A stretch of DNA of 64,000 bases from the NCBI RefSeq assembly GCF_004010195.1, contig NC_057754.1, positions 4,036,223 to 4,100,222 on the forward strand, written 5' to 3'. Below the pieces are notes generated by a model. It was not told the DNA's origin. It was given only the letters and a program-made list of their open reading frames with translations, and made no database searches. Positions 6,546-42,235 of the stretch are shown piece after piece (the first letter of the stretch is position 1; each line of letters opens with the position of its first letter). The translations under genes and the position numbers were made by a program. This stretch comes from Chiloscyllium plagiosum (lineage: Eukaryota).

Positions 6546-8119
6546 ATCTAAATCGGAATTAAATCTAGCCGTTGTCCTTCCTGATTACCATCCCTCTTCC
6601 CTTTAAACAATTCAAAGTGCTACATTCTACCCACTCTCTGGATAAAGAAATTTGTCTTGAATTCTATTTCATTTATTATGATTGTGTATTAAATTGATTG
6701 AACCCCTAGTCTGATCTCCACAGGGTTCCCCATAAGTGGCAACATTTTCTCTACCTCGAACCTATTGAGTGTCTTTGGAATGTTTAAAGTCCTCCTCCAG
6801 ATCACCCCTCCACCTCAGAATTGCAGCCTGTTCAATGTCTTGATACACACATCCTCTCAGTTCTGGTATCCCGCTGGAAAATCCTTGTTTTAAATTTTAC
6901 ATATTGTCCAGTGCTTCTTGGAGGTTGGACCTTGCTCTGTGAGGTCCAGTCAAGTTTTGACCTAATCTCAAGAAGACTCAATGGGGCTCAGTCTGGGGCC
7001 TTGCCTAAAACTGTGGCTGTAGAACACGACAGGTGTCACATTCCCAATCTGGCTCCTGCTGAAGTTAGAACAAGATACCCTTCCACCACAGAGTGTAAAC
7101 ACTGCCTCGAAGTTCCTTTTAGACTGATGCTTCAGAGGGCGGGGATGTCGTTGCTATGGCAAAGCAGCGATACGAGGCCTTGATGTTGTACTCTGTTGGT
7201 GCAGGCCCCTAATGTGCAAGGAAGTTATCAAGGGCATTGCACTTCCAGCTTGTTTGTTCTGTGTGAGGTGGGGAGTATTGTAGGGGAGGGCAGGGAGGAG
7301 GTAGTGGTATTGAGTTTGTTGGCTTGGGACAGGCAAGTGGCAGGATGTCCTCTCTCCGTCAGTTTACAACCTACATTACGCGGCAGCTAGCAGTTGTGTG
7401 TATGTGTGTAATGGTATTGTTCACTAGGCTTGCTGGGTCATAGGTCACCAGGTCCCTCAGGCCAGCTGCCAATAGTCTCTTCCTGCCTCTGGAGCGTCCT
7501 GCGCTCATGGACTGACTGCCAAAAACATAAAGGCATTCAGATTTACAATGTGGGAGAGTCATTTCTCTTAAAGGATCCAGGCTGTGTAGACAGCAAGTGG
7601 AGGTTGTACAGTAAGGCGACAAGGCTGCAGAAACAGCAACAAGGATTTTTAAGGAGGAATGTTGACCAAGGGATCAAATTGTCAGATAATGCTCCTCTTG
7701 TGAAGTGCCTTTGTTAAATACAGACTTCTGGTCATAGATCTTTCAAATCCGCCTGAAAGGCCGAGAAATCTCAACTGAGGGTCAACACCTCTGACAATCT
7801 GGCATTTCCTCTATACTATATTGAGAGTCTGGACTGACACTGACATCCACCACCTGATTCCGAGGACATTGGGAAAATCAGGCTGGGATACAATAAAAAT
7901 GAGAGAAGTGGTTATAAGTTTAATTTTGAATTGTGTACTAATCCAAAACCACAAGGGTTAAGAGAAACTTCCCTTTGTTCCTCTCGCGCTCTCTGCGTAA
8001 ACCCAGGGGGCCAGAGAAAAAAGGAAATAAAACATCTTCCTTCACTAGCTTTGGGGAGCATATTGGGACACCAATATTGGTTGTGAAAAGTGCTAGATAA
8101 ATCCCTCCTCCCATCCTTT

Positions 8120-8430: not shown

Positions 8431-10836
8431 AAGGAAAATTCATTAAATTTGCAAATGTCATATCACATCCCATCTTGTGTATTTCCAAATGGAGCTCTGG
8501 TATGTTAATTCCTAAGTATGATTTTTTAAAACTTCTTTTCCCCCTCCGACTGTTGTAAATTTCTATCCCTCATTTCTTTGTAAAGAGTATTCTCCTTATA
8601 GCCCTGAGGTAATTGGTGACCTGCTTATTCATTCACCGTAGTTTCAGCTCGATCACCAGTTGTCTCAGAGTGATGTGCTTTTTGTTCAATTCAATAAAAG
8701 GAAACCAAAAAGCAAATCTCATTTTTCCTTCATTTTGTTTGTTTCCTCTTTGTCACCCTCCTCAATTACTGCTCTGTTCAGACTCCAGAATCACTCTTCC
8801 TCATTCACCTAAAGCACTACATCAGCATCCTCCATGTCTGCGTCAGGTGAAGGCTTTGTCTACGGTGCTGTCTGTGCTAAATGTCCTGATCAACACCCAG
8901 ACTTGGAAGAGGGAGGGAATGTTGACCATTTGTTTAATAATGACCACCCTACGAAAGTACCTTGGAATGTCTCAATGTGGAAAAAGGTGAAGTAAATGCA
9001 AGACTAACTCTCTGTGCAGTGCATCTGTCTTCCTACTGCATGGTCTTAGGATGCAGCTGTAATAATGTGAGCAGCAGACAGGGATGGTTACCCCCTAGGC
9101 ATTCAGAAGGGAGAAAGAGAGAGCGAGTGGCGATTCAGTGGAGTGTATGGAACAAGGTTCTTGACCATTCTTTTAATGCTTCTGGCCCTCTCTGGACTCC
9201 TCATTAATAATCTGGTCTGACAGCAGAGACTGCTATGTTCCAAATGGAGACTTTTTAAAAAGAAATTAAATTCTTCCTTGGCATACTGGAGGGTACATAG
9301 AAGAATGCATATAAACAGAAGAGTTAGGCTACAGGAAAGATGCACTTTGGTGTGCTGAATGGCCTTGCCTTTCCTTTGACTGTCTTATGTCCTTTCAGGT
9401 CACTTTTGTTAATCTTTCCTTGGACAGAATCTGTGCTGGAATTGGGGATATTGTGCCAGTCATGTAGAACCACCTGTCTAATCTCCCTGTGCCCAAACCT
9501 ACTTCCCAATTAAAAACACTGGTTGAAGCAGCAAGTTGTTTAGGAGCAGGGTGACCTATTTGCAGCACTTCTTTTCTCAACTCCCATGTCAACGAACTCT
9601 TAAATCTTTGGAATCCAAGAAATGTGAGTGAGTGTGACATTCCATTTCAATGGCATGGGGCCAGAAGGTGAGGGAGGCCATTTGACTCATGTAGTTGATC
9701 CTGCCTTCCATCAGCCCAATTGCTCAACTCTCTTGTGAGTTTTTCAAAGGTTTGCCCCTATCTCTTGGCCTTCTGCTCCCAGCTATCTGTTTGTCAGGAA
9801 GTGTACCCCTCTTCTCTCCCATTGGACCATAAGGTATAGGAGCAGCATTAAGAACCACTTGGCCAATCTGCTCCATTGTTTGATCATGGCTGATGTTTTT
9901 CAACCCCATTCTCCTGCCTTCTCTCCATAACCATTGATTCCCTTATTAATCAAAGAACCCATCCATCTCTGTCTGGCCCACACTGACTGGGCAATGAGCC
10001 AGAAAAAAAGGGCATTCAATGTGTTGAATAAGAATCTGGTTGCCTGTCTTAATGTCCTGCTTGACCATGTGAAATCCTTGTCTGAAAACATTCCTGTCCA
10101 GTGGCGTGGAATGTTTCACTGCATTAATGATGCTATTTAAATGCAGGTTGTTGTTATAAAACAATGCCTTTGGCAACCTCAGAATGTCCAAGAGCTATAA
10201 AAGGTACTCGGGCAAGAACTCCCCTGCTCTTCAAAACAATTACCTGTGAAACCATTTTCATCCACCTCAAAGGGCAGGTGGGGTCTTAGTTAAGTGTTTC
10301 ACCCGAAATATGACATCTCAGACAGTACAGCACTCCCTCAATATTGTATGAGGACTGACTGTCTAGACTTTGTGCTCAAGTCTCTGGCTTGGGATTTGTA
10401 TCATAATCTTCTGTCTGAGTTGCCAGTGTTGCTGCCAACTAAACCACAGCTGATGCTTTTAAATTTAAAAAAATTGGTAATAAAAAATAAGAAGCATTTA
10501 AGATGTAAGTAAGGATTAAATCATAGGATATGTGGCTTTGGAAAAGATTTCTTCATGAACAGATAATGGGTATTTTTAATTAACCATCAAGGCATTAGAG
10601 AGGATACGGAGGAGGTTTACCAGAGTGCTTCCAGAAATGAATGATTTCAGCTATATAGACAGACTAATTCTGGGATGGATTCTCATTAGAGCAGGAAAGT
10701 CTTAAAGTGTGATTTAGAAGTGGGGTTCAAAATCATGCGATCAAGTTTAGAAAAGGCAGTAGTGCAGTGGTATTGTCAGTTGAAACTTTATTGCTGGAAC
10801 AGCACAGCAGGTCAGGCAGCATCCAGGGAACAGGAG

Positions 10837-10872
10837 ATTCGACGTTTCGGGCACAGGCCCTTCTTCAGGAAT
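10837..10872 (-). ncRNA. Minimal type I hammerhead ribozyme motif
   Basis: attc-CTGAAGA-a-GGGC-ctgt-GCCC-GAAA-c-GTC-gaat: intact core, 4-bp helix I and helix II. Confidence 0.75.
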
Positions 10873-11084
10873 GAGCAGAGAGTGTTCAGCAGGAGAAGAT
10901 AAAAGGTAGGGAGGAGGGACTTGGAGGAGGGGCGTTGGAAATGTGATAGGTGGAAAGAGGTCAAGGTGAGGGTGATAGGTCGGAGTAGGATGGAGGCGGA
11001 GAGGACAAGAAGAAGACTGCAGGACAGGAAGGCGGTGCCGGGCGGGAGGGACTCGGCTGAGACAAGGTGGGGGGAGGGGGGATG

Positions 11085-11505
11085 AAGAAACTGGTGAAGT
11101 CCAAGTTCATCCCCTGTGGTTGGAGGGCTCCCAGTCGGAAGATAAGACGCTCCTCCTCCGACCGTCGCGTTGTTGTGGTTTGGCGGTGGATGAGTCCAAT
11201 GACCTACATATCCTCGGTGGAGTGGGAGGGGGAGATGAAATGCTGTGCTACAGGGTGGTTGGGTTGGTTCGTCCGGGTGGCCCAGAGGTGCTCTCTGAAT
11301 CGCTCCGCAAGTAGGCGGCCTGTCTCCCCAATATAGAGGAGGCCACACCGGCTGCAGCGGATGCAGTAGATGATGTGGGTGGAGGTGCAGGGGAATCCGT
11401 GGCGGATATGGAAGTTTCCTTTGGGGCCTTGGAGAGAAGTGAGGGGGGAGGTATGGGCGCAAGTGTTGCACCTCCTGCGGGCGCAAGGGAAGGTGCCGGG
11501 AGTGG
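11085..11505 (-). pseudogene. Penelope GIY-YIG endonuclease, one in-frame stop
   Basis: FPCARRRCNTC...IIYCIRCSRCGLLYIGETGR...RFREH...HPVAQHF...EDM*VIGLIH...RRSEEERLIFRLGALQPQGMN. Confidence 0.9.
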
Positions 11506-11819
11506 NNNNNNNNNNNNNNNNNNNNNNNNNNNNNNNNNNNNNNNNNNNNNNNNNNNNNNNNNNNNNNNNNNNNNNNNNNNNNNNNNNNNNNNNNNNNNNN
11601 NNNNNNNNNNNNNNNNNNNNNNNNNNNNNNNNNNNNNNNNNNNNNNNNNNNNNNNNNNNNNNNNNNNNNNNNNNNNNNNNNNNNNNNNNNNNNNNNNNNN
11701 NNNNNNNNNNNNNNNNNNNNNNNNNNNNNNNNNNNNNNNNNNNNNNNNNNNNNNNNNNNNNNNNNNNNNNNNNNNNNNNNNNNNNNNNNNNNNNNNNNNN
11801 NNNNNNNNNNNNNNNNNNN
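11506..11819. other. Assembly gap (N run)
   Basis: Run of N bases. Confidence 1.
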
Positions 11820-11853
11820 TGATCTCCAGCATCTGCAGACCTCACTTTCTCCT

Positions 11854-12033
11854 TTATAATCATCTAGAAAAGAATAATTTGATTAGGGATAGTCAGCACG
11901 GTTTTGTGAAGGGTAGGTCGTGCCTCACTAGCCTTATTGAGATCTTTGAGAAGGTGACAATACATGTTGATGATGGTAAAGCGGTTGATGTGGTGTATAT
12001 GGACTTCAGTAAGGCATTTGATAAAGTTTCACA
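11854..12033 (+). mobile_element. CR1 RT fragment enclosed within the Penelope insertion
   Basis: YNHLEKNNLIRDSQHGFVKGRSCLTSLIEIFEKVT...AVDVVYMDFSKAFDKV, open frame. Confidence 0.85.
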
Positions 12034-12256
12034 CTTGACATCTTTCCACCTATCACATTTCCAACTCCCCTCCTCCAAGTCCCTCCTCCCTACCTTTTAT
12101 CTTCTCCTGCTGAACACTCTCTGCTCATTCCTGAAGAAGGGCCTGTGCCCAAAACGTCGAATCTCCTGTTCCCTGGATGCTGCCTGACCTGCTGTGCTGT
12201 TCCAGCAATAAAGTTTCAACTTTGATCTCCAGCATCTGCAGACCTCACTTTCTCCT

Positions 12257-14870
12257 CAGTGGTATTGTCACTAGACTAGTCAACTTGATCCAGGCTAAGG
12301 GTGTAGGGGTTTGAATCCCACTACAGCAAATGGTGAAATCTGAAATTCAGTTAAGAAATCTGAAATTAAAAGCTTGACCTTAAACCAATTGCTATAAAAC
12401 CCAGTCCAGTTCACTAATGTCCTTACCTGGTCTGGCCTACATGTGACTCTAGATCTGCAGCAACTCCCATGACTCCCATGAAGCAACTCCCATGAAGTTT
12501 AAATGACTCAGCAAGCCATTTGCTATGCCGCACACTACACTCAGGTATGTCTAACTGCTATAATGTCTGTTAAAAGGAATGAATCGGCCAGTTTCAATGG
12601 TACTTTACTGATCTTGCAAAGTTAGCCATTGTTTAAAAAAGAATCTGGGGCTAGTGCCTAAATTGAAAGAGCTGTTTCACAGACTCATCAAGCAACAGCC
12701 TGATGGAGTCATTCTCACATAATCATACTGACACACACAGTCTCAAACGACACCATCAATAACATAGCTTGGCAGCACAGAATATAGACTCAGAAGAAAG
12801 TTGCCCTGGAAGTCCCCTGTATGAATTCTGGATCGATGAAGTCTCATGGCATCAGGGCAGACATGGGTAAGGAAAATATATACTGATTACTAGCTACGTC
12901 ATCCCCAGCCCCGCTGATGGATTAGTTTTCCTTCAAGTTAAACAACACTTGGAAGACTCACTGAAGGTGGCAAAGGATGGGGATGGGGATGGGCTGGTTG
13001 CATTCTAAAGGCCATAGCTGCTGATCTGACTTGTGGCAAGTGGTGAGGGAGCCAACAAGATGAGAAAATGTACTTGACCTCATCTTGTTTCTGGATTAGT
13101 AGTGCTGGAAGAGCACAGCAGATCAGGCAGCATCCAAGGAGCAGTGAAATCGACGCTTCGGGCAAAAGTCCTTCATCAGGAATAAAGCCTCATCTTAACC
13201 AACCTATTTGTAGCAGATACAATTACCCATAGAATGGATAGGGGTGATCATTGCACATTGCTTGTGGAGACAAAGTCCTGCCTTCATGATGAGATGCTCT
13301 CAGGACTACCTGAATGGAATAGATTTCAAGCAGATCTAGCAACTCAAGACTAGGCGTGTAGAAGGCATCTTGGGCTATTCGAGGCAGCAGACATGTATTC
13401 AACCACAATCTGTAGCCTTGTGGCTGATATGACCCTACTCCAGCTTTACCACCAAGTCAGGGGATCAACCCTTGTTCAATGGAGAGTGCAGAAGGACATG
13501 CCAGGCGCAGCACCAGGCGTACCTAAAAATAACATGTTAATCTGATGAAGCCATCGCACAGGATTATTTGCTTGTTAAGCAGCATGCGATAAACAGGGCT
13601 AAGTGACCTACATCAACTGATCAGATCTAAGGTCTCCAATCCTGCCACATCCAGTCAAGAATGGTGACGAATGACTAACTCATTTGAGGAGGAATCTCCA
13701 CAAATGTCTGCATCTTCAGTGATGGGTGAGCCCAGCATCTCAGCATTTACACGCATCTATTACAATTACCTACAGCCAGATAAAGATGAGTGGATAATTG
13801 TCTTAGACCCAGTGTCACAGGTACCAGTCTTTAGCCAATTTGCTTCATTCTGCATGATTAAAGAAACAGCTGGAGTTACTGAACACTGCAAAGGATAGGG
13901 GTCCTGACAATATTCTGGCGTAGTGTCAAAGACTTGTGCTCCAGAACTAGCCATGGCCCTCACCAAGCTGTTCCTGCAGAGATACAACACTGCCCTCACT
14001 GACATCTACCAAGCATGTAAAATGCACTGGTACATCCTGTCCACAAAAAAAGGACAAATCTGACCATCAGTCTACTCTCAATCAATTAGCAAAGTGATGG
14101 TTTTGGGCTGGTAACTAACAGGTAACATTTGTGCCGCACAAGTTCCCTGACACGATCACCAACAAGAGAGAATTCAATCATCAACCTTTCTCATTCAATG
14201 GCATTACATCACGGAATCCTCTACAATCAATATCCTAGGGGGTTAGCATTGACCAAAAACTGAATGGACCAGTCATATAGATGCTTTGGCTACAAGAGTA
14301 GGACAGAGACTGGGAATCCTACAATGTGAAACCATTCTCCCCTCTCCCCAGAGCCTGCCCATCATCTGTCAGGCACAAGTCAGGCACGTAATGGACTACC
14401 CTCCATTTGCCCTGGAGAGGTTAAGCTCCAACAATACTCAAGAAGCTCAACACCATCAAAGATAAAGCAGCCCATTTGACTGGCACCATATAACACCTTC
14501 AGCATTCACTTCCTATACCATCGAACCACAGTGGCAGCAGTGTGTACCTTTTACAACTCGTGAAGACTCTTGCAACAGGACCTTCCAAATCCATTACCTC
14601 TACTACTGAGAAGGACAAGGGGCAGCAGGTATATGGAAATTTCCCTGCCATGCTCCACTGTGATGTGGACCTATGTCACTCTACTTTCACTGTCACTAGG
14701 TCAAAATCCTGGAGTTCCCTCCCTAACAGCATTGTGGGTGTCCTTACACCACACAGACTGCAACAAGTCAGGAAGGCAGTTTGCCACTATCCCCTTCTCA
14801 ATGGGCAATTAGGGATGGACAATAAATGTTGGTTTAGCCATTGATGCACACATCCTGTGAATGAATAAAA
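12257..14870 (+). mobile_element. Decayed, internally deleted non-LTR retrotransposon (CR1/L2/jockey-group RT)
   Basis: tRNA-like head, RT remnants GPDNI...KTCAPELAMALTKLF...PVHKK...ISLLS, 3' end ...gggcaattagggatggacaataaatg...gaatgaataaaa. Confidence 0.7.
13087..13187 (-). mobile_element. Penelope-type short element, family A, with decayed hammerhead
   Basis: TSD cctcatctt at 13078-13086 and 13188-13196; - strand CTGATGA...GAAG-C-GTC. Confidence 0.7.
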
Positions 14871-20951: not shown

Positions 20952-21145
20952 ACAAAAATAGAAATTGATGGAAAAGCTCAGCAGTTAATGTTCAGGTTGA
21001 ATGACCCTTCCTCAGAACTGGACCTGAAACATTAACTCTGATTTCTTGCCACAGATGCTGTCAGACTTGCTGCACTTTTCCAGCAATTTCTGTTTTTGTC
21101 TCTGATTTACAGCATCCCCAGTTCTTTTGGTTTAATTCTGATAAG
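20952..21145. mobile_element. Palindromic Penelope-type element, family D, inside the Gypsy 5' LTR
   Basis: Arms gacaaaaatagaaattgatggaaaagctcagca / tgcacttttccagcaatttctgtttttgtc; - strand CTGAGGA core; absent from the other LTR copies. Confidence 0.7.
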
Positions 21146-23784
21146 AGTATGAGTTCCCTGATTGGGGTTCTTAACCTGGTCCAATCAGGGAGTCCTGACT
21201 GATGGATATAAACAGGAGTGCCAGGTTTCTGTGCACTCTAGAAGCTGGCTCTGAGCAAGTTGGGCCAGTGTCATGACTATGTACGTGTAAATAAAGGGGG
21301 ACTTGGTGACGGGATGCCAGCCTTCATGGAGTTATTTCAGTGTAATAAGAAAAACACACCCCAAAAGAGATTCGCTCGCAACAATCTTCTTTGCATTGGG
21401 GTAAGCGTTTCTGGCAGCATGTCACTATTTGGGAAGTTACTCAACAGTTACAGAACCAGGGGAATCCATGTTGGGATTTTTTAATGAGGTTATGATGACT
21501 GGCAGAGGCATGTGATTTTGGTTTAACCATAAGTGAGGTAAGGAGAGACTGGTATGTGGGATTAATGATGTGACCATGCAAAAGTGCCCATTAGCTGAAG
21601 CCCAACTGGACTTGAAACAGGCACTACAACTAGCCCTGAAAGGAGAAAGTGTGGCAAGTGGAGCATATGAGTTACATAGTATTCCAACGGAAGTGGACAC
21701 CCTTGACAGGCTGACTGACCTTGGGGAACACCACTTGAGTGAAGGCAAGTGTGCAGCCTCACTCAGGACATATCTTGAATAGAGGGACCCTAGGTCAGGC
21801 AACAGCAAAATGCCAAAACAAAGCCTAGCCTTGGCTGACGGTTAAAATTTTCTTGAGGATCCAGGTTGGCAAGCCATTGTAGTTGCTGCCAGCATGAGGA
21901 CTTGAGGCAGCTAAAGAGCTCCATTGGGCATGAATTGAGTAAGAGAATTCATATGCTGGTATCCAGAAGAGTGCACACCCTGAAAAGATTACCTGCAGCT
22001 GATTTGGAACAGTTAAATTGCTTAGCAACATCCAGATCAGAATCAATCAACATAAACATTTAGTTAAATGGTCAGCCAATTCTAATGGAGGTCAATACTG
22101 GTGCAGCTGTATCAGTGATTACCAAAATTCATTCAGGACTCCAACCCTTAAGTTTGTGTTAGACCTCAGCTTGGATGAGAACCTATTCCGAGCAACCGCT
22201 CCGGATTAAGGGTACAACTTCGGTTCCGGTATGATTGTAGTGAAAGGCTTGGGTCCAAGCTTGAGGGAGTGAAATTTGTTGAGAAAGATTCAAATTGATT
22301 GGCTCAACATCTTTCGATTAGAAAATGGCTGTCTAAGGGAAGTCCTAATTAAATACCCTGAAATTTTTCAGGAAGGTCTAGGGGCTATCAAAGGGGCCAA
22401 GGCCACCTTGCAAGTTGACCAAGAAGCAATTCCATGATTCTGCAAGGCCTGCCCAGTGCTATTTGCTCTATGTACAAAAGTAAATGCAGAAATCGGGAAT
22501 CATCCAACAGTACAGTTTGTGGAATGGGCAGCAGCGGTCGTACCAATAATGAAGCCTGACGGCTCGGTTCACCTTTGTGGGGATTTTAAGCAAATAGTAA
22601 ACCACTTTTTGCAGCTGCATAGGTGCCCAATCCCTCACATGGAGAGTTACATGCAAAACTGGCTGTCCTTCACGAAGCTGGACATGAGCTATGTAAAGCT
22701 ACAACTGTGATTAGATGAGGATTCCCAGAAGTATGCTACAATTAATACCCATAAGAATTTGTACCAATATACAAGCCTGCCTTTTGGGTATTATCAAATT
22801 GTTACAACTTTCCAGCAGACCATGGAGAACAGGTCACCATTTATCTGGATGACACGCTACTAACTGGGAAGGCAAATAAAGAGCATTTAGAGAACTTGAG
22901 CATAGTGTTTAAACATTTCTCCAAGGCGGGGTATACCTTTGAAGGGAAAAATGGGTGTTCCAAGCACCCCAAATGACCCACTTGGGCTACAGAGTCAACA
23001 AAACTGGGTTACATCCATTGGAAGGTAAAGTGAGGGCAATCAAAGGTGCCCCAGCTCTCATGTCTGTACCAAAGTATTGGTCTTTCCTTGATGAATTATG
23101 GAAAATTCATACATAACTTGACCTCCATCCTGGCACCCTTACATCTGCTATTGAAAAAGTCTTGGAAATGGTCTCGTAGCCAAGATATGGCCTTTGGAGA
23201 AGTGAAGAAGCAGCATTTGTTGTCTAAGGTGTTGGGCACACCACAATCCCACACAAGATGACATGCTGACATGTGATGCCTCCCCATATGGTATCCGGGG
23301 TAGTGTTGGCTCACTGTTGGCCAGTGGAGAGAAATGCCTGATGGTGTATGCTTCCCAGACTTTGGCTGAGATTGAATGGAAATACACCCAGGTAGAGAAG
23401 GAAGGTTTGGCAGTCATCTTTGTTGTGAGAAAATTCCACCAATACCTTTTACGGATGTAAATTTGTGATAGTAATAAACCAGAAACCCCCAAGGCTACTT
23501 AAAGAGGACAAGGCCATGCTGCCCATGGCTTCAGGTCGAATTCAGCGGTAGGTTCTTATTCGGAGTGTGTACAATTACAAGTTGGAACACCATCTGGGAG
23601 GCCATGTGGCAAATGCAGATGCCTTGAGCTGCCTCCCACTGGCGGGCACCCCACCAATGGTGCCGTCACTCGACGAATCCACTCTGGTTTAAATTTTTCA
23701 GGACACCCCTCTGGCCAGTGCTGACAATATTGGACTGTTGACACAAAAAGATCCCGTCCTAGCAAAATTAAAATAGCTGGTGGT

Positions 23785-24033
23785 GGTGAGTTTTGAGAAG
23801 ATTTGTAGCCTAGGTTGAGGTTCTGGATGTAACTTTGCTCGCTGAGCTGGAAGGTTCATTTCCAGACCTCACCACAGGAAATGACATCATCAACCCAAAG
23901 AAACCCAAACATATAAATAGAAAGCAGGAATCATGTACAATGCTTCGCCTGGAGGCCCACTGAAGATGTTACCTAGAAAGGTAACGAAATGTCTGGAAAT
24001 GAACCTTCCAGCTCAGCGAGCAAACCTACATCC
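23785..24033 (+). mobile_element. Penelope-type element, family C, with hammerhead core
   Basis: TSD atagctggtggt at 23773-23784 and 24034-24045; inverted arms 23824-23867 / 23991-24034; cca-CTGAAGA-t-GTTACC...GGTAAC-GAAA-t-GTC-tgg at 23957-23996. Confidence 0.8.
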
Positions 24034-24142
24034 ATAGCTGGTGGTAATGGGAGAAACAAAAGGGCCATCACAACCAGAACTGAAACCTTTCTGTACCTGG
24101 CGAGATCAGATCACAGTAGAGGATGGCATATTATTACAGGGA

Positions 24143-24365
24143 GAAAGTGAGGTCTGCAGATGCTGGAGATCAGAGATGGAAATGTGTTGCTGGAAAAACG
24201 CAGCAGGTCAGGCAGCATCTAGGGAACAGGAGAATCGACGTTTCGGGCATTAGCCCTTCTTCAGGAAATCATCCTGAAGAAGGGCTAATGCCCGAAACGT
24301 CGATTCTCCTGTTCCCTAGATGCTGCCTGACCTGCTGCGTTTTTCCAGCAACACATTTCCATCTC
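24143..24365. mobile_element. Perfect palindromic Penelope-type element, family A, with two hammerhead cores
   Basis: 94-bp perfect inverted arms 24173-24266 / 24272-24365; duplication catattattacaggga at 24127-24142 and 24365-24380. Confidence 0.9.
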
Positions 24366-25708
24366 ATATTATTACAGGGAACAAGAGTGATTGTCCCGAG
24401 CAACGATTGCTGTCAGAACTCCATCAGGGTCATCCAAGGTTTCCAATATGAACATGTTGGCGAGAAGTTATGTCTGGCAGTCAGGTTTGGATGCTGACAC
24501 AACTACGTTGGTGGGGCAATATCCAGAATGCCAACAAGGACAAACATTACTGCCAGCAGCACCCCACATTTGTGGGGATGGCCGGGCAAACCCTGGACTG
24601 AGTTAAAGGCAACTATACGGGTCCTTTCATGGGCTCAATTTTCTTAGTCATTGTAAATACCCATGCAAAGTGGAGGAATGCACAGAGTTCATTCGAAAAA
24701 GCACAGGGATGATTGAAAATCTGCGAGCAAATTCTGAATTTGCAATACACGGACTCCCAGAGGTGTTAGTCACAGACAGTGGGCTAGTGTTCACCAGCAG
24801 GAAATTCGGAATTTCCTAAAGATGAATGGCATGAAGCATGTAAGGACCGCCCCATACCATCCATCATCCAATGGTCAGGCAGAAAGAGCAGTTCAAACTT
24901 TGAAGGCAGGCTTAAAGAAACAGCCTACATTCGATAGCCAACTGTCCTGGTTCTGTCTGATTATAGAACCACCCCTTACGAAATCACAGGGACAGCTCCA
25001 GCAGAGTTGCTAATAGGGAGAAGACTGTGCACCAGGTTAAACCTGATCGTTCTTGACCTGACAGGAGGGGGTGAAACTACATCAGGAACGCCAATCTGGA
25101 CGCAATGCTCCTCTAAACAAGATAGACAGTTTACTTCAGGGGATGAAGTTTGGTGTCAAAATCAGGGGAATATCCCTGCATGGGTAAGAGGCACAGTCGA
25201 AACGAGGTCACATCCCATGGCGTACAAAGTTTGAATAGATGAGGTGGTCCTGAACAAGCACATGGATCACATGACACCCACAATCTCTCAAATGTGGCAG
25301 GAGCAAAACATAGCCAGCCCCTCAGAACATCCAGCAAGGATGTCAGAACCCGTGAGTTCTCCCCCTCTGCCTAGCATCGAAGAAATCTCTCAGGACAAAA
25401 TGGAAAGGGCAGATGCTGCAGTGTTGATGCCATCACCACCTGAAGAAGAAGGTGACTTTCTTCCAAGACGCTCCGGGCGCAAGAGGTGGACTACGGTCCG
25501 ATACACGCCAGCAGAGTCGGAGCAACTGGACCTTGTTGAAAACTCCCCAGGAGAAACTACAGGAAAAAGAACAGGCCTATGTCCCAGGACTTAAAGGGGG
25601 AGAGATGTGATTGGAATGAGGTCAGCCAGCCATTGAATGAGTTCCTTGCTTGGGGCTGTTAAGCTGGTCCAATCAGGGAGCCCTGGCTGACAGATATAAA
25701 CAGGAGTG

Positions 25709-26380
25709 CACCGGGCGGTGGGGATCCCCAGTGGAGGGCTCTCTATGTGGGAGTCCTCCCCCTTTCTCTCGGGGATCTGGGGTGGAGGGTGCTGCACGCA
25801 GCAGTCCCCTGCAACCGCAGGTTGCGGTGGTTCACGGACTCCCAGCCCAATTGCTTGCTCTGTGGCGCTGTGGAGTCCGTGGAACATGTATATATGGGGT
25901 GTGGGTGTTTGCACCCCCTTTTTGATTTTCTTAGAAACCTCCTCCTCTGCTTTTGGCTGCACTTCAGTCCCACGCTCCTGATCTTTGGGCACCCGGTACG
26001 GAGGAAGGAGGGCAGGTCTGAAGACCTCCTCGTGGGTCTGCTCCTGGGCCTGGCCAAACTGGCCATAAACAGGTCCAGGCAGCGGGCCGTGGAGGGGGTC
26101 GTTGGGGACGACTGCCTGCCCCTCTTCCGCGGTTACGTTAGGGCCCGGGTGTCCTTGGAGAAGGAGCGCGTGGTGTCCACCAACACCCTGGAGTTGTCCA
26201 GGGAGAGGTGGGCGCCGCAGGGAGTGGACTGCATCATTTCTCCCTCCAACTCTATTTTGATGTAGTCCCTACCCTCCCCTTCACTGTTTTGATCACACAG
26301 CACTGCCCTTTGATGTGAAGGGCAGTGTTTGTCACTGGCCACCCGGGTGTTTTCTTATCTTCCTGGTGGTAAAAAAGAAG
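25709..26380 (+). mobile_element. 5'-truncated Tx1-clade (L1 group) non-LTR retrotransposon in the Gypsy 3' LTR
   Basis: Open ORF 25747..26265 with GDLGWRVLH...C-x2-C...ESVEH...C zinc knuckle and LLGLAKLAI; A-rich tail; TSD ataaacaggagtg at 25696-25708 and 26381-26393. Confidence 0.85.
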
Positions 26381-29214: not shown

Positions 29215-29820
29215 AGGGTGTTTTTATGGGACAGCGTTGTAGTACATGCTGTGTATCTAACCCCATGCTCCTTCTGCCCTGGGAGTATTCACTGGGGACT
29301 GTGTAAAGAGATCTTTACTCTGTATCTAACCCTGTCATATACCTATCCTGGGAATTATTCTGTATCAAACCGTCCGTCGCAGGAGTGTTTGATGTTGTCG
29401 ATGTAGAGGTAGCCTTACTCTGCATCTAACCCTGTGTTGTAGGTTTGATGGGAACAGTATTGGGGGAGCTTGAATTTAAGTTTGAAGGGGAGATTTAATA
29501 TAACCATATGCTGTCCCTGTTGTATTTGTTGGGCATATTGTGGAGGAAGCTTTACTCTGTATTAAACCTCATGCTTATCTGTCCTGGGAGTATATGATGG
29601 GAACAATCTGGAGGGAGCTTTACTTTCAGCTTAAAAGTTGAGAAGAAGTTTTACTCTGTATCTAACCCTATCCTCTATCTGTCCTGGGAGTGTTTGATGG
29701 GGACAGTATCAAGGGAGCTTTACTTTTGAAAGTTTAAAAGAGTAGAGGGGAATTTGATTTTTATTTAATCCTGTACTTGCCCTATAAATTTTATTTTGGA
29801 CAATGTGGAGAGAGCTTTAC
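29215..29820 (+). repeat. ~68-bp minisatellite array
   Basis: Same unit and orientation as 5170..6545. Confidence 0.85.
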
Positions 29821-29858
29821 CCTTTATTTAAGTCTTGCCTTTTCCTTGTTTTCTCCAG

Positions 29859-30320
29859 GTCATATTGATTTTGACTATGCAAAAATTCATACTCAACAGC
29901 CTGAAATGAAGGAAACCAGCACGAGATTTGATCAGCAAGGCTGAAGATATTCGATGTAGGTCTGTGATTGAAAGCACCATTATGCTCCCTTAATTACTGA
30001 ACTGTTGACCTTCACAATTGCCTCACTGCTCTATGTCACTTCTCCTGTCCCCTGTAATGGCCTTCGCCTCTTCAGTGATTCGGTGCTGTTTGGGACGAAG
30101 AGAGCAGTCGTTCTGAGGATGTAAGGGCCCTATGCAGAGTCCTCCAATTGAGTTTCCGTGCAAGGGGAAGAGATGTTCTTTCCCCACCCAACCAAGGCTC
30201 CTGCCTGGCAATCTCGGGCACTCTCAAGCCAGTAACTCACTCCCCCAACGGGTGGGTGCCATTGTCCTGTGCGTGAGGAACTGCAAGGGAGGGAGGATCC
30301 CACTTTAAGGGGTACAGGAC
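29859..30320 (+). other. SIPA1: Probable 5' UTR portion of the first coding exon of SIPA1
   Basis: Strong acceptor cttttccttgttttctccAG ending at 29858; in-frame TAA at 30306-30308 just upstream of ATG 30321. Confidence 0.55.
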
Positions 30321-31521
30321 ATGCAGTCGGACGATTTTTTCTACAGGAAGTTCAAGAGGAACAACCACCGGCCTTTGCTGTCGGCAGTGAACTTTGAACC
30401 CAAGGCAACTAGGTCAACTCCTGAGCCTGTCGGGACAACAGTGCGGGCCAGGATTTCAGAATGGCCGCCCCGGCGGGAGTCGCTGGAGGATGGCGCTGCA
30501 AGGAATCACGGCAGTGAAGATAAAGGGCCCTGTCGACCCCTTGACGAGGCTACTGGCACCAAGGGCAACGTGAAGGAGGAGACGCAGGAGTGTGAGACTG
30601 TGCAGCTGGTGGCCAAGATGACAGCACAGGGACGCAACCCGGTGATCCAGCGCAGCAACAGTGAGGTGACCATCACAGATAGCAGCTGCAGCCAGGACTC
30701 AGACCAGCGGGCTGCTCACCCTTCCCCTGGGGCAGCCCTCCACCGGGACTACGGCAGTGCCTCCTCCATTGAGCGTCAGCAGTCACGGGACGGAGAAGGT
30801 GAAGCCAATCGGCCAGGGTCAGAGGTCACCAGTGCTGCTCGATTCCAAGACCCCTACTTGCTGCTGGGCCTGACAGAGAGCCCTGGTGCCGAGGAGAAAG
30901 CAACAAAGGGGAGGCCAAAGCTTGCGGTGGAGCCACCCGCTGAGGCCTCAGTGTTCCGAAAGCTCAAGACCCAGAAAAGTGACCCAGAGAGCCCAAGGTC
31001 ACCACCCCCAGCATCAGCACTGGTGCCGAGCCAGAATGACACTTGCCAACTCTGGGCCAGTGCAAGGAACGTGGTCCACTATGACGTGCAGAGCATCCTG
31101 TTTGACCTGCACCGTGCTGTCTCCAACCGTGACAGCACTGGGCGGCGCAAGAACATCATCACCGGCGCCTCTGCCGCTTCCCAGCTGCCCGCACAGCCTA
31201 CCTCGCCCAGCAACAGTGGCAGCACCGAGGAGCTCCACCAGTTGTTGGCCAAAGGGGTCGTGCCAACAGCGGCCAGTGGTAGCACCGGAGGAGACCAGGG
31301 TGATGGCAAGGACACCCAGCTGGTCCTAAGTTGCCCACATTTCCGCAATGAGGTGGGTGGCGAGGTGGAGCCACAGAATGCCAGCCAGTGCCCCAATGCT
31401 GCTGTGTCTGTGCTGGAGGAACCCCGGGAGAGCTATCTGGCTCGGCAAGGGACGGCTGCTTACTTCATTGAACATGCAGACCTGGGCGCCAACTATTACC
31501 GAAAGTATTTCAGCGGCAAAG
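30321..31521 (+). CDS. SIPA1: SIPA1 coding exon 1 (N-terminal region, 400 codons + 1 nt)
   Basis: ORF MQSDDFFYRKF...HYDVQSILFD...PNAAVSVLEEP...EHADLGANYYRKYFSGK matches recalled SIPA1/SIPA1L motifs; donor G|gtaata, phase 1. Confidence 0.93.
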
Positions 31522-31604
31522 GTAATAGTTTAAGAATTAAAACTGCATTCAGGTTGTAACTACAGCTACTCGCTAATTACAGAAGCTGCACTTCATCTTT
31601 GCTT

Positions 31605-32285
31605 CCAGGTGCAGAGTAATGCTCCCTCTGCACTGACCCTATCAAACACCCCCCAGGACAGGGACAGCATGGGGTTAGGTACAGAGTAAAGTTCCGTCTA
31701 CACTGTCTCCCATCAAATGCTCCCAGGACAGGGACAGCTTGGGGGTTAGATACAGAGTAAATCTTCCTCCACAATATTCCCACCAAACACTCCCCAGGAC
31801 AGGGACTGCACAAGGTTAGGTACAGAGTAAAGTTGCCTTTACACTGTCCCCCATCAAACACTCCCAGGACAGGGGCAGCACGAGGTTAGGTACAGAGTAA
31901 AGTTCCTTCTACACTTTCCCAGTCAAACACTCCCAGGACAGGGGCAGCACGGGGTTAGATACAGAGTAAAGCTCCCTCCACAATATTCCCACCAAATACT
32001 CCCCAGGACAGGGCAACACTGGGTTAGATACAGAGTAAAGCTCTGTCTACACTGTCCCCCATCAAACACCCCCCAGGACAGGGGCAGCACAAGCTTAGGT
32101 ACAGAGTAAAGCTCTGTCTACACTGTCCCCCATCAAACACACCCAGGACAGAGGCAGCACAAGCTTAGGTATAGAGTAAAGCTCGCTCTACACTGTCCCC
32201 CCATCAAACATTCCCAGGACAGGGGCAGCACAAGCTTAGGTATAGAGTAAAGCTCCCTCTACACTGTCCCCATCAAACACTCCGA
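31605..32285 (-). repeat. ~68-bp minisatellite array, inverted
   Basis: About 10 copies of acactgtccccatcaaacactcccaggacaggggcagcacggggttagatacagagtaaagctc. Confidence 0.92.
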
Positions 32286-33976
32286 GTTGTTACAGCGTGT
32301 ACAGAAATAATGCCTAAATAGAACCTGTCTGAACCTTGTTTACATCGCACTTAATAATGCAGAACACTCTGGAAGATGCAAATACAATTGAGCAGAACTG
32401 GGAGGTTATACATGTCAGAAATAGTTGAACAAGTTGGAGCTATTTTCCTTTCGCCTACCTTTCTTCTCACAATGACCTGACAAAGGTCTTTAAATGAAAG
32501 GATTTTGATAATGTGAATGTCGAGAATGTATTTCCCTTTGTTGGAGAGACCAGAACTAAAGGCTAAAAACTTAAATATAAGCATGACACTAATGAATCCA
32601 AAAAGGATTTCAGGAGAAATTCTTATTCCAGATTTGTGGTTACCATAGGGTATGGTTGAAGTGATCAGTATATCTGCACTTCAGGAGGAGCTGGATAATC
32701 ACATGATGGGGAAAGGAATGAAAGAATATGTTGAACTAGTGAGATGAAGAGGATTAAGAGGAGACACAAGTGGTGTGTGAACATACCGCTCTGTTGGGTC
32801 AAATAGCTTGTTTCGGTGTTGTAAGTTCTCTATGTTAACAGCGGGTATTTGCAGCACAACTGAGTCTGTTGCTATAATCCACCCCACGCCAGCTCTCTCC
32901 AGCATGAGTGATTGATGAGGAGTATAAGACTTGGCTTTATTTCCCCATGGGTACACACATGGCTGTCATCTATTAAAGGAGTATTTCGCATTGGCCTGTG
33001 ATATTGAGCTTGTCCACTCATATTGAATGAGGGGAAACCCTCAAGGTTTTGACAGGAAAAGCAAGCTCCTGAGAGAGATATGACAATCAAAACCTCGTAA
33101 CGTGTCATTGTAGACCTGGGCTTGGAAGAGTCTTGCTGTTCAGCTTCAATTGTTTTATCTTTCCTGTACTCAGTCTCATTGTAGAGGGTTGCATTTTACC
33201 TCTGCTTTTAAGCTGTCAGCACCTTGGAGACCTGTGCTGTTTATTTCCCCATGTGGTTATATGTCTTGAAACGTTTCCTGTCAGTGCTGCAAGCAGTTCT
33301 TTCTCTTACAATGCTTTGTTGAGGCCATCGATCAGTGTCCCCAAATTGCATGAGCTGACAAGAGGATATTGTGGTCAGGCTGAAGCAAGCGCCTAGGCAG
33401 TCAAAAGCCCCTGTTCTGGAGCCAGCCATCTTGAGTGCCAAGCGAGCATAAACAATTGCTAGAGAAGGAAGTGTTGGTTGCTTTGCTCCTGGCTGTCCCT
33501 TCCTGATAGTTACCCTTGCAAGTATGCCACAGCTGTCTCATGTCTGGCATGGCAGCCATCTTTTGACATGGACAAATTTGGGCTATTTGGAAAGGGAGAA
33601 TGTTGGGTGTTGAAAATTGGACCTGAATGTGTCACAATCCAAAGATGTAACAAAAAGTGTATGCTCATAGAACGTGCCGCCCACTCCGCAGTTCTTAAAA
33701 TGGCCCCAGTTTCCACCCTGGAAGGAAAAACTTTTACCTTGTCTTGTATACTTCAAAATAGAGCTTCTGTATAACCAAGTATTACTGTTTTGTTTCAATC
33801 TGTTTTATTAATAAACCTCTCCAACAATCTTGTGATACTGTCTTTCCCACTGTACATGAATATTAGCTGTGCACTCTGCTTTCTATTCTCACTGAGTTAG
33901 TAGAATTCAGTCTCCATTCTGTTGGTATTTGTCACCATTGACTTCAAAAGTGATCATTCTGCTTTGATTTCTACAG

Positions 33977-34869: not shown

Positions 34870-35175
34870 TTATAGAAACCCTACAGGTCGGAAAGAGGCC
34901 ATTCAGGCCATCAAGTCACACTGACCCTCCAAACAGCATCCCACCCGAATCTAACCTCATAACGCTGCATTCCCCATGGCTAACCTGCCTAGCCTGCACA
35001 TTCCTGGACACTATGAATGATTTAGTGTGGCCACTGATCCTAATCTGGAATCTTTGGACTATGGGAGTAAACCCACTCAGGCAGGAGAGAACGTACAAAC
35101 TCCACACAGACAGTCGCCCAAGGCTGCCATTGAACCTGGGTCCCTGGTCCTGTGAGGCAGCAATGCTAGCCACTT
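34870..35175 (-). mobile_element. HE1-type SINE
   Basis: Homologous to 20..307. Confidence 0.75.
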
Positions 35176-35176
35176 A

Positions 35177-35540
35177 TAGAGTCATAGAGATGTACAGCAC
35201 GGAAACAGAACCTTTGTTCCAACTCCTCCATGCTGATCAGATATCCCAACCCAATCTAGTCCCACCTGCCAGCACCCGGCCCATATCCCTCCAAACCCTT
35301 CCTATTCGTATATCCATCCAGATGCCTTTTAAATGTTGCAATTGTACTAGCCTCCACTACTTCCTCTGGCAGCCATTCCACATGTGCATCACCCTCTGCG
35401 TGAAAAAGTTGTCCCTCAGGTCTCTTTTATATCTTTCCCCTCTCACCCTAAATCTATGCCGTCTAGTTCTGGACTCCCAAACCCAGGGAAAAGACCTTGT
35501 CTATTTACCTTATCCATGCCCTGCATGATTTTATGGACCC
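35177..35540 (-). mobile_element. CR1/HER1 LINE 3' end
   Basis: atagagtcatagagatgtacagcacggaaacag... closely similar to the copy at 37345. Confidence 0.8.
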
Positions 35541-36865
35541 AGCACTGATCCTTTAAAAAGATACAAAGCTGTAATCTAGTTAAATTGGGAAATACTAACT
35601 AGTTCATTTGCACTGTTTTTAAAAGACTTGGGTTAAAACCCCCCAAAACATTGGTTTTGCACCCAAACGATTGTTTAGTTTTTTGCACCCCCATAAGGCC
35701 TGTGAGTGAATACAATTATAGGAAACTTACCATAGTGCCTAATTTATCCTGATTCAATGACCTGCTGGGGGTCTCACTTGCCTGGACTAGTACAGCTCCA
35801 ATAACGCTCAAGAAACTCAGCTCCATCAAGGACAAAGCAGTTCACTTGAGCAACACCTCATCCACCACCTTTAAAGTTCATTCTCTCCAGCAAAGACACA
35901 AAGTGGCAGCAATGTATACCATCTCCAATACACATTGCAGCAATTCACCAAAATTCCTTCTGAACACACCACCTCTTACCATCTTGAGGGACAAGGGCAG
36001 CAGATGAACCATGCAAGTTCCCTTACAAGTCGCTAAGCATTCTAATTTGGAACTATATCGTTCGTTCAGTGCTGCTGGGTCAGAATCCTGGAACTCCCTC
36101 TCTAACAGCACTGTGGTGTACCTATACTACATGGCCTGCAGTCATTTAGGAAGGAGATAGGTCATTATCTTCTCAAGGGTGATTAGGACAAGCATTAAAT
36201 GATACAAGCCTATGATGCCCACATCCCATGCAAGAATAAATCTTTTAAAAATAATTGTGGTCCGAGTTGAGCCTGCATCCACTGCAGCACAGAAATAAAG
36301 AATAGAATTTGGCCATTCAATTTGATCATGGCTGAAATCTAACTCTATATCTTTAAACAGAAAGTAAAGTTTCCTAAACGCTGTCCCCATCAATCACTCC
36401 CAGGACAGGAACAGCACGGGGTTAGACACAGACTAAAACACTCTCTACACTGTCTGCAACAAACACTTCTGGGACATGAACATGACAGAGTTAGGTGTAC
36501 AGAGTAAAGATCCCTCTATTCTTTTGAACTGAAAGGAAAACTACCTTCAGTTTGTCCCCATCAAACACTCCAAGGACAGGGACAGCACGGGGTTATATAC
36601 AGAGTAAAGCTCCATCTACACTATCCCCATTAAACACTCCCAGGGCAGGGATAGCACAGGGTTAGACATTGAGAAAAGTAAACTCTTCTCTCTTAAGCTG
36701 GAAAGTAAAGCTCCCCAGACGCTGTCACAATCAAACATTCCCAGGAATTGTACAGCCCTGGGTTCATACCAAGTAAAACTACCTCTATATTTATCATCAT
36801 CAAACATGGCCAGGACTGGCGAAACACGGAATGTGATAAAGTGAAGCTCCTTTTGAACTGAAAGT

Positions 36866-37082
36866 TAAAAATCACACAACACCAGGTTATAGTCCAACAG
36901 GTTTAATTGGAAACACACTAGCTTTCGGGGTGCCTCTCCTTCATCAGATGGTTGTCAACCACCTGATGAAGGAACGGTGCTCCGAAAGATAGTGCTTCCA
37001 ATTAAACCTGTTGGATTATAACCTGGTGTTGTGTGATTTTTAATTTTGTATACCCCAGTCCAACACCAGCATCTCCAAATCA
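36866..37082. mobile_element. Palindromic Penelope-type element, family B, hammerhead cores on both strands
   Basis: TSD tttgaactgaaagt at 36852-36865 and 37083-37096; CTGATGA at 36963 and GAAA at 36984; - strand CTGATGA...GAAA-G-CTA. Confidence 0.85.
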
Positions 37083-37344
37083 TTTGAACTGAAAGTAATG
37101 CTCCTTTCACACTATCTATCAGACACTCCCAGGACAGGTACAGCACTGGGTTCAATACAGATTAAAGGCCCCTCTACACTGTCAGTATCAAATAATCCCA
37201 GGGCAGGTACAGCATGGAGTTAGATATCGAGTAATGATCCCTCTACCCTTAAAATGAAATTAATACTTCCTCCATACTACCACCTCAAACACTCACATGA
37301 CAGGTACAGCATTGGGTTAGATACAGAGTAAGTCTCCCTCTATT

Positions 37345-37983
37345 AGAGTCATAAAGATGTACAGCATGGAAACAGACCCTTCGGTCCAACCCATCCATGC
37401 CGACCAGATATCCCAACCCAATCTAGTCCCACCTGCTAGCACCCGGCCCATATCCCTCCAAATCCTTCCTATTCATATACCCATCCAAAAGCCTCTTAAA
37501 TGTTGCAATTGTACCAGCTTCCACCACTTCCTCTGGCAGCTCATTCCATACACGTACCACCCTCTGTGTGAAAACGTTGCCCCTTAGGTGTCTTTTATAT
37601 CTTTCCCCTCTCACCCTAAACCTATGCTCTCTAGTTCTGGACTCCCCAGGGAAAAGACTTTGTCTATTTACCCTATCCATGCCCCTCATAATTTTGTAAA
37701 CCTCTATAAGGTCACCCCTCAGCCTCTGATGCTCCAGAGAAAAAAGCCCCAGCCTGTTCAGCCTCTCCGTGTAGCTCAAATCCTCCAACTCTAGCAACAT
37801 CCTTGTAAATCTGTTCTGAACCCTTTCAAGTTTCACAACATCTTTCCAAAAGCGTACCAAACGCCTTCTTCACTATCCTATCTACCTGCGACTCCACTTT
37901 CAAGGAGCTACGAACCTGCACTCCAAGGTCTCTTTGTTCAGCAACACTCCCTAGGACCTTACCATTAAGTGTAGAAGTCCTGC
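37345..37983 (-). mobile_element. CR1/HER1 LINE 3' fragment
   Basis: ORF KDVVKLERVQNRFTRML...RLGLFSLE..RLRGDLIEVYKIMRG...FTQRVVRVWNELP. Confidence 0.9.
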
Positions 37984-38289
37984 TCAACAGTTTTTCCATC
38001 AGGCATCCTGAATAGGGACAGCACATGGTGAGATACAGAGTGAAGTTCCTTCTACTTCTTCAAACTGAAAGTAAAGTTTTCTCTACTTTTTAAAACTGAA
38101 AGTAAGGCATGCTTGAAACTGTCACCAGGATAGGAACAGTACAGATGAAATACAGAGTACATCTGTCTCTACTGTTTTAAACTGAAAGTTGAGCTGTCTC
38201 TACTCTATTGAACTTAAAGTAAAGCTCCCGCCACAATGTCCCCATCAACCACTCCCAGGAAATGTACAGCAATGGGTTGGTACAGAGTA

Positions 38290-38483
38290 TTGAAAGTGTG
38301 GTGCTGGAAAAGCACAGCAGGTCAGGCAGCATCCGAGGAGCAGAAGAATTGAGCAGGAGAATGAATGGGTCTTGCTCAAAATGTTGACTCTCCGACTCCT
38401 CGGATGCTGCCTGCCCTCTGTGCTTTTCCAGTATCATACTCTCGAGTCTAATCTCCAGCATCTGCAGTCCTCACTTTCTCCTG
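38290..38483. mobile_element. Decayed family A palindromic element
   Basis: gctggaaaagcacagcaggtcaggcagcatcc / ggatgctgcctg...ttttccag; 3' end ctcactttctcct. Others at ~46915-47095 and ~57455-57578. Confidence 0.7.
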
Positions 38484-38514
38484 CTCCCTCTACTCATTTA
38501 AACTGAAAGTAAAG

Positions 38515-38855
38515 GGTAACACGGTGGCTCAGTGGTTAGCACTGCTGCCTCACAGTGCCAGGGAACCCGATTTGATTCCACCCTCGGGTGACTGTCTGTG
38601 TATAGTTTGCATGCTCTCCCCGTGTCTGTGTGGGTTTCCTCCGGGTGCTCTGGTTTCCTCCCATAGCCCAAAACCGTGCAGGTTAAGTGGATGGGCCACG
38701 CCAAAGTGCCTTCTAGTGTCCAAGAACGTGTAAGCTAGATGGGTTAGCTACGGGAAAAAGTCCATGCGGTGTTATGAGGATGGGATGTTGTTCAGATGGT
38801 CAGTGCAGACTCTATGGGCCAAATGGCTTCTTTCTGTGCTGTAGGGATATTGTGA
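38515..38855 (+). mobile_element. HE1-type SINE
   Basis: ggtggctcagtggttagcactgctgcctcacagtgccaggg head. Confidence 0.8.
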
Positions 38856-39122
38856 TTTTAAAGCTGTCTCTACACTGTCTCCAGCAAACACTCCTAGGAC
38901 AGGGACATCATCCAACTCCTGCTGCATCCTCATACCCTTTGTTCCCTTTAGCCGTTTGAACTATATCTAGCTCTTTGAAAAATAAACTGGTGTAAAAAAT
39001 TGTCTAGCAGGTCATTTGTGCCAGCATCAGAGGGAATTGTGCCCCAATTGAACGGTAACTCCAGGCCCACAATGTATGGAATGGAAAAAATGAGCTTTGA
39101 ATCTCATGCTTTGTGCCCACAG

Positions 39123-41844: not shown

Positions 41845-42235
41845 GCGTGAGGTTAGATATGGACTAAAGCTGCCTGTACTTTTTAAAACTGAAAGAAACG
41901 AAAAGTAAAGTTCGCTCAAAACCATCCCATTACTCATTCACGGGACAGCAACAGCATGGGGTTAAATACAGAGCAAAGTTCCTTCCACTCTTTGAACTAA
42001 AAGTGAACTGAAAGTAAAGTTTAGTTTGTGTTGTCCCCAAGAAACACACTCAGGGATCGGGACAGTACGGGATTAGATATAGAGTAAAGTTTTCTCTACT
42101 CTTTTAAATTGGAAGTAAAACTCCTTCCAGACTGTCCCCATCAAGCAGTCTCGGCACAGCACTGGGTCAGATACAGAGTAAAACTTCCTCTACACTGTCC
42201 CCATCAAGCACAGCCAGGACAGGGCTAGATAGAGT
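41845..42235 (-). repeat. ~68-bp minisatellite array
   Basis: Same unit, - orientation. Confidence 0.8.

Follow-up and report, generated by a model that had tools for sequence, protein, structure and literature searches.

Penelope-like elements and their hammerheads

Endonuclease-bearing Penelope-like elements (EN+ PLEs) insert with an inverted pLTR and with a tail of 30-40 bp at one end (PMC8557442, PMC3846280; the tail also in PMC11167929). In Pen2a_Av, the inverted pLTR is accompanied by a 31-bp tail and a 9-bp target-site duplication (TSD) (PMC3846280). At AT-rich sites containing ATT, each of the two target strands is cut and extended, and the tail is bounded by two start sites of the reverse transcriptase (RT) (PMC11167929). 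The formation of inverted pLTRs and tails, as well as the role of the hammerhead, is described as undefined (PMC8557442, PMC11167929).

Dual hammerhead motifs on opposite strands, 100-700 bp apart, have already been noted in PLEs, where a single motif gave no cleavage and dimers had low activity (PMC4209133). The Anolis PLE ribozyme is protein-assisted and dispensable for insertion, and the main template is uncleaved RNA (PMC11167929).

The locus described here is a hairpin at 24127-24380 of a 64-kb stretch of shark DNA; this whole stretch, which was analysed throughout, is called the window. The hairpin is an ordinary, relatively young stump of a PLE insertion, and it is real. Both its architecture and its ribozyme class are already known. 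Like other EN+ PLE insertions (Pen2a_Av in PMC3846280; Fig. 2 of PMC8557442), it combines a head-to-head pLTR with a one-end tail of 30-40 bp, and it shares with them variable TSDs, 5' truncation and, in the family, a GIY-YIG at the C-terminus. Unlike insertions of the Pen2a_Av type, it holds about 130 nt of element and no ORF, lies in a shark, and belongs to a family of very high copy.

The cores of the hairpin share with metazoan PLE hammerheads the CUGANGA and GAAA boxes, an unpaired base before helix II, the G10.1-C11.1 pair, and no helix III beyond the palindromic 15.2-16.2 (PMC4209133). They differ in a helix II of 4 bp, against 7-8 bp in the Schistosoma example, in a helix I that the junction shortens to 2-3 bp, and in lying only 9 nt apart (PMC4209133). 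With Poseidon_Ac of Anolis, the locus has in common a tail bounded by two sites, an AT-rich target with ATT, and copying of uncleaved RNA (PMC11167929). The Poseidon_Ac ORF starts inside the ribozyme, whereas no such start is evident in the shark CTGAAGA-box subfamily.

Non-LTR retrozymes are likewise non-coding, PLE-derived and equipped with a type I hammerhead, but they form head-to-tail tandems that allow cis dimers, whereas the hairpin is head-to-head with one core per strand (bioRxiv 10.64898/2026.07.22.740005). That class needs head-to-tail tandem units, and a single head-to-head pair does not belong to it. The preprint sampled one chondrichthyan, and a whale shark paper reports Penelope present (PMC8455134). 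No literature joining Penelope, hammerhead and cartilaginous fish was found in a search that most subscription papers lay outside. Among papers on Penelope-like elements and twin priming, judged by title or the start of the abstract, none dealt with the PLE mechanism. A link to the human Eulor repeats is not supported in passages from PMC5753468 and PMC9004415.

Anatomy of the hairpin and its target site

The two arms are exact reverse complements over 94 bp, without a mismatch, and enclose a 5-nt loop; the chance expectation of such a palindrome is about 1e-49. As RNA, the hairpin folds at -207 kcal/mol (z -30.7), and none of 200 shuffles was equally stable. Direct repeats of 16 bp flank the insert, given as a TSD of 15-16 bp because the first base of the right repeat is also the last base of the arm. 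The TSD is AT-rich and includes ATT. An unpaired tail of 30-33 nt (24140/24143-24172) accompanies the left arm only, and the insert is hence not symmetric.

These features bear out the observation of an earlier note on this DNA, which reported the 94-bp palindrome with zero mismatches and a 5-nt loop, a TSD of about 15-16 bp, and CTGAAGA-a-GGGC-taat-GCCC-GAAA-C-GTC on both strands. The motif starts at 24274 on the plus and 24264 on the minus strand. The tail, the shortened helix I and the many further family copies in the window go beyond that note. Its inverted pLTR insertion is likewise found, as a head-to-head arm of 94 bp here and of 188 bp in a longer sister copy. The same note saw an insertion of only inverted pLTR; the inverted copy stands, whereas "only" does not, as the insert comprises a pLTR end, a tail and the inverted copy. 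Table 1 lists the features and the related copies.

Table 1. Hairpin locus, surrounding host DNA and related copies, in window positions
Feature	Position	Strand	Description
Host DNA around insertion	23302..24974	+	Decayed remnant of Gypsy-like pol, with RNase H-like and integrase fragments and numerous stops and frameshifts
Left TSD	24127..24142		16 bp; final 3 nt GGA also fit the element terminus (microhomology)
PLE tail	24143..24172	-	30 nt (33 nt counted to 24140); one arm only
Tail-bearing pLTR 3' arm	24173..24266	-	Ribozyme-sense on minus; 5' end 3 nt upstream of CUGA box
Hammerhead core, minimal type I	24237..24264	-	Runs from CUGA box to GUC; helix II of 4 bp and helix I of 2 bp
Head-to-head junction	24267..24271		Loop AATCA; junction varies among other copies
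Inverted pLTR arm, tail-less	24272..24365	+	5' end 2 nt (6 nt, one gap allowed) upstream of CUGA box
Hammerhead core, minimal type I	24274..24301	+	Helix II of 4 bp, helix I of 3 bp; ACGU palindrome as helix III
Right TSD	24365..24380		Direct repeat of 24127..24142
Longer sister insertion	10778..12256		188-bp inverted pLTR, 3' PLE ORF with GIY-YIG (-), N gap, tails, TSD
Decayed hairpin copies	~38285-38482, 46915-47091, 20955-21117, 51841-51990, 55781-55950		Found by BLAST
Solo arms	13089-13183, 57464-57577		Found by BLAST

The host remnant is recognised on both sides of the insertion, with a match to PF17917 in the left flank (23302-23454, E 6e-9) and to PF13683 in the right flank (24804-24935, E 2e-5). 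Translation of the left flank ends in the host pentapeptide ILLQG, and the right flank opens with it again, which makes the direct repeat a genuine duplication of target DNA. The same Gypsy-like remnant also contains a second, unrelated hammerhead-bearing hairpin insertion at 23773-24045, with a 12-bp TSD. This insertion has a core at 23960 (+) with a helix II of 7 bp and a helix I of 3 bp, a perfect stem of 34 bp and, upstream, a TATA-like motif, and it too is high-copy in public sequencing runs.

Family identity and related copies in the window

A BLAST search with the tail-bearing arm gave 13 more matches in the 64-kb window beyond the two arms, and these resolve into one long copy, five decayed hairpins and two solo arms. 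The long sister copy is 88% identical to the hairpin over 128 nt of DNA, its inverted arms of 188 bp have 3 mismatches, its TSD is 14 bp, and the same tail asymmetry recurs at 12222-12256. On its minus strand, 11204-11503 matches GIY-YIG (PF01541) at 24.5 bits, against a cut-off of 22.6. A homologue search with the sister copy gave 26 hits among 46 candidates, the best being shark proteins from Chiloscyllium punctatum (84%), followed by Rhincodon (62%) and Leucoraja (61%). In three of the four homologues scanned (P0002, P0003 and P0016), RVT_1 lies upstream of GIY-YIG.

Given GIY-YIG in the sister copy and RVT_1 with GIY-YIG in the homologues, the hairpin family is an endonuclease-bearing PLE of the shark, an assignment that reaches the ORF-less hairpin itself through its 88% identity to the sister copy. 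The PLE origin proposed in the earlier note is thereby borne out. The family displays the features by which EN+ PLEs are recognised, namely RT followed by a C-terminal GIY-YIG, an inverted pLTR, a one-end tail and a TSD of variable length. The full-length family ORF was not recovered, and the window holds no full RT. Exact flanking repeats of 8-14 bp occur at five of the nine other copies tested, and none of at least 7 bp was found at the remaining four; TSD length across copies is 8-16 bp. Extending the query with upstream sequence revealed no other longer young arm in the window.

The sister copy is composite. Inside its single 14-bp TSD lie a tail (11820-11853), a LINE RT fragment of about 180 bp (11855-12031; RVT_1, E 2e-4), and a second pLTR with tail. 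The LINE fragment is presumably CR1-like, and its presence inside the copy possibly reflects capture of flanking DNA. The copy is also interrupted by a 314-nt gap of N, and the GAAA box of its direct pLTR is mutated. The solo arm at 13089-13183 is flanked by a 9-bp direct repeat, and its end lies 4 nt upstream of the CUGA box. The hairpins at 20955-21117, 51841-51990 and 55781-55950 belong, as hairpin-tail copies, to an older subfamily. Their inverted arms share one end point, 5-6 nt upstream of the core, and compensatory changes occur in helix I and helix II. Outside the window, a pattern scan returned 48 metagenome-contig and 3 genome-contig loci that aligned over at most 25 nt and are ascribed to chance, and it returned none in viral contigs.

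The ribozyme motif and its state in the hairpin

A hammerhead descriptor applied to the whole window gives four hits (23960+, 24274+, 24264- and 10868-), whereas 30 shuffles averaged 0.13. The hairpin cores contain the CUGANGA, GAAA and NUH boxes, helix II and the palindromic 15.2-16.2 of the PLE type, in keeping with the earlier note's minimal type I hammerhead whose helix III is a palindrome (here ACGU). Helix I measures 3 bp on the plus strand and 2 bp on the minus strand, compared with 4 bp in the sister copy at 10868, and is thus shorter than the 4-5 bp of the PLE type. A short helix I does not disqualify the motif, since that of the D. virilis PLE hammerhead is 2 bp (PMC4209133).

Across seven cores, helices I and II pair in 91.1% of cells, whereas shuffled sets give 82.8% (0/500 as high) and slid controls reach at most 56.9%. 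Changes on both sides occur in three of eight helix pairs. This covariation supports the structure only moderately, because the seven sequences are related and the structure was derived from them. Rfam gave no match at gathering score in the 64 kb. At 23900-24600, with E up to 10, its 14 matches all fell below gathering and included no hammerhead, being mostly miRNA-precursor models on the stem; a single arm gave three weak matches, none of them hammerhead. When two cores were cofolded, the dimer ribozyme was not the minimum-energy fold.

The notion of back-to-back hammerheads holds in that the motif occurs on both strands, but not in the sense of two separate ribozymes, for the palindrome is one sequence read on both strands. 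Because the cores lie on opposite strands, one RNA contains one core, and with a single sense core per transcript no cis dimer can form. The symmetry also means that transcription from either side reaches the antisense arm first. In a predicted growing plus-strand transcript, the core pairs with the mirror arm at a mean probability of 0.96 at 24280 and 0.999 by 24301. For such a read-through RNA, the modelled values agree with the self-sequestration that had been suggested. With the antisense arm first, one core per RNA and helix I shortened, the hairpin copy would not be expected to cleave. Both arms pass through the GUC site, which agrees with an uncleaved-RNA template (PMC11167929).

Age of the insertion

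None of 109 paired positions differs between the arms, which places a 95% upper bound of 2.75% on divergence. At a mutation rate of 7e-10 per base per generation (PMC10587355), this bound corresponds arithmetically to about 2e7 generations. The insertion had been called very recent; it is relatively young, but recency in absolute time is unproven, as the upper bound permits those 2e7 generations.

In organism B, 28 of 596 letters of the flank pieces are different. Arms that had diverged to this degree would show no mismatch with P 0.006, on condition that those pieces are orthologues and that no homogenisation of the arms took place. The hairpin thus appears younger than the split from the related species. 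An alternative letter at 24179 accounts for 59% and 54% of depth in organism A and 97% in B, and from these frequencies the subfamily of the hairpin expanded mainly in A.

Abundance and junctions in public sequencing runs

Three DNA contig sets (X1, X8 and X14, the last from organism B) and one RNA run, out of 24 runs listed, were mapped to 23600-24900. The contigs aligned number 47,759, 47,986 and 42,421, respectively. The depth summed over the element comes to 1.6-6.9 million, a figure that is not a copy number, while single-copy flank pieces have about 5-17. The PLE family is clearly very abundant in the shark genome, and the hairpin is not special but a usual product of this very high-copy family. 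In the RNA run, 0 reads matched, from about 6% of that run only.

Contigs whose loose ends continue into unrelated flanks accumulate at particular positions. At 24140, the tail end, they number 368, 340 and 391 in the three DNA runs; at 24180 and 24358, the end of the tail-less arm, 93-118; and at 24267, 3 nt upstream of the CUGA box, 186, 176 and 168. Some copies extend beyond 24267, since the consensus there begins with natural upstream sequence. Among the 15 joints listed, out of 692, five exit the left arm at 24267 and resume at differing points of the right arm. An apex variant 2 nt shorter than the hairpin at 24127-24380 reaches a summed depth of 12,926, 1,993 and 9,618 in the three runs. 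Together, the joints and the depth of the shorter apex show that such hairpins are common and their junctions variable.

Among the 15 of 692 joints listed, none represents an empty site, and among the 24 pieces listed, no contig spans the element-flank junctions of 24127-24380. The reality and polymorphism of this exact copy consequently rest on its anatomy. X1 contains the right flank exactly, over 335 nt with 0 differences. One X8 contig aligns to 24414-24552 and 24619-24789, omitting about 66 nt (24553-24618), and may represent an allele or a paralogue.

Formation of the hairpin

The hairpin is very probably a non-autonomous, 5'-truncated insertion of an endonuclease-bearing PLE, made at the moment of insertion and inert since. 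The PLE RT/GIY-YIG protein would nick the target with a stagger of 15-16 bp, and uncleaved element RNA would template DNA synthesis. One arm would start at the outer end of the tail, and so include it, and the other at its inner end, and so lack it; two such starts would fit the pair of RT start sites that delimit the tail (PMC11167929). Two short cDNAs, or one cDNA and its fold-back copy, would then join head-to-head just 5' of the ribozyme, and repair would fill the TSD. On this model, the palindrome would be a by-product of insertion and the ribozyme motif cargo, with read-through RNA zipping the core to the antisense arm. Most likely the hairpin has no function and will decay, as older hairpins in the window did.

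The main rival is a mechanistic variant of this explanation, in which a target-primed cDNA reaches just 5' of the ribozyme, loops back and copies itself up to the tail. Such self-priming would account for two identical arms, and the Discussion of PMC3846280 reads palindromes at inverted junctions in this way. Against it, other copies have unequal arm 5' ends and junctions that skip or add letters, and the tail-less arm stops at a recurrent site, as a second RT start site predicts (PMC11167929). Fold-back is a credible contender that we nonetheless regard as the less probable route.

A self-propagating non-autonomous unit, MITE- or SINE-like and descended from a master hairpin, is improbable. 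The 2-nt-shorter apex does occur at hundreds of times single-copy depth, as copying of a master would produce. The hundreds of junctions (692 joints) and variable arm lengths do not fit a fixed unit, TSDs of 8-16 bp among copies are unlike those of a DDE transposase, and a hairpin of such stability would make a poor RT template. Membership among MITEs, which need terminal inverted repeats to both ends and a fixed TSD, is contradicted by the 30-33-nt tail and the 8-16 bp TSDs.

We give very little credence to a functional host hairpin, whether a miRNA or siRNA precursor, an editing substrate or a ribozyme switch. The fold is strong, and a Rap-GAP gene downstream on the plus strand would make intronic read-through possible; yet the Rfam miRNA matches lie far below gathering and reflect only the stem, and the hairpin, lodged within a decayed retroelement, seems younger than the divergence from the related species. 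An assembly fold-back artefact is scarcely believable despite the perfect palindrome and the want of a listed contig across the locus junctions, given that the flanks are not mirrored as fold-back would require, the TSD duplicates host codons, the tail shows the asymmetry of published PLEs, the window contains decayed hairpins of like geometry, and contigs span the apex in three runs from different studies.

The apex as a possible transcription start

The short arms in the window, 14 in all, go no further than 6 nt 5' of the CUGA box. For the older subfamily the reference itself stopped at -6, yet past that position each arm adjoins its partner. Relative to C3 of the box, the arms start at -3, -6 (-2 without the gap), -4, +7, +3, +32, +32, +50, -6, +18, -5, +29, -6 and +23. 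Six of the 14, drawn from two subfamilies, end 2-6 nt upstream of the box, whereas both arms of the long copy reach -97. This wall, at -2 to -6, falls on the 5' edge of helix I and on a YYANWYY motif, whose background frequency is 1.2% per position. YYANWYY is the initiator consensus; it reads TCATTCC in the young subfamily and CCAGTTC in two of three older copies.

PLE transcripts begin within the pLTR (PMC2377424, PMC6765202), and an Inr-like motif is found in Adineta pLTRs (PMC3846280). As no short arm passes more than 6 nt beyond the CUGA box, and the wall lies at an initiator-like motif, the hairpin apex may mark the 5' end of the element RNA, that is, its transcription start. We hold this reading tentatively and think it rather unlikely, with a small sample and a motif noticed post hoc. 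Alternatively, the wall may come from stalling of RT at the ribozyme, or it may correspond to a splice boundary located at helix I, of the kind found in D. virilis (PMC4209133).

Should the apex be the start, the stumps would be paired run-off cDNAs, strong-stop-like, with priming from both target strands at the two RT start sites close to the 5' end of the RNA. The hammerhead would then stand at the very start of the transcript, where cleavage would remove a capped leader of about 32 nt, and the tens of thousands of shark copies would form a natural data set for the PLE integration mechanism. In many short TSD-bounded hairpins, arm ends, junctions and arm-to-arm variants can be counted, which bears on dual priming versus fold-back and on the RNA 5' end. 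PLE hairpins may, moreover, be a substantial source of dsRNA in shark pre-mRNAs.

Neighbouring features of the window

Host gene exons lie at 30309-31559 and 46030-46773 on the plus strand. The stretch 46030-46770 matches Rap_GAP (E 2e-8), and Rap1GAP structures were also matched. A 416-aa ORF in the host exons has no Pfam hit and resembles what we take to be the N-terminus of SIPA1L. At 25663-26265 (+) lies a 3' fragment of a LINE ORF2 (zf-RVT, E 2e-5). A SINE-like dispersed repeat occurs in both orientations at 178-305, 35064-35190, 38520-38710 and 50972-51167. Finally, a satellite-like repeat of 69-71 bp is present on both strands, dispersed as well as in tandem, at 5238-6551, 29226-29846, 31568-32331, 36320-38908 and 41863-44681.
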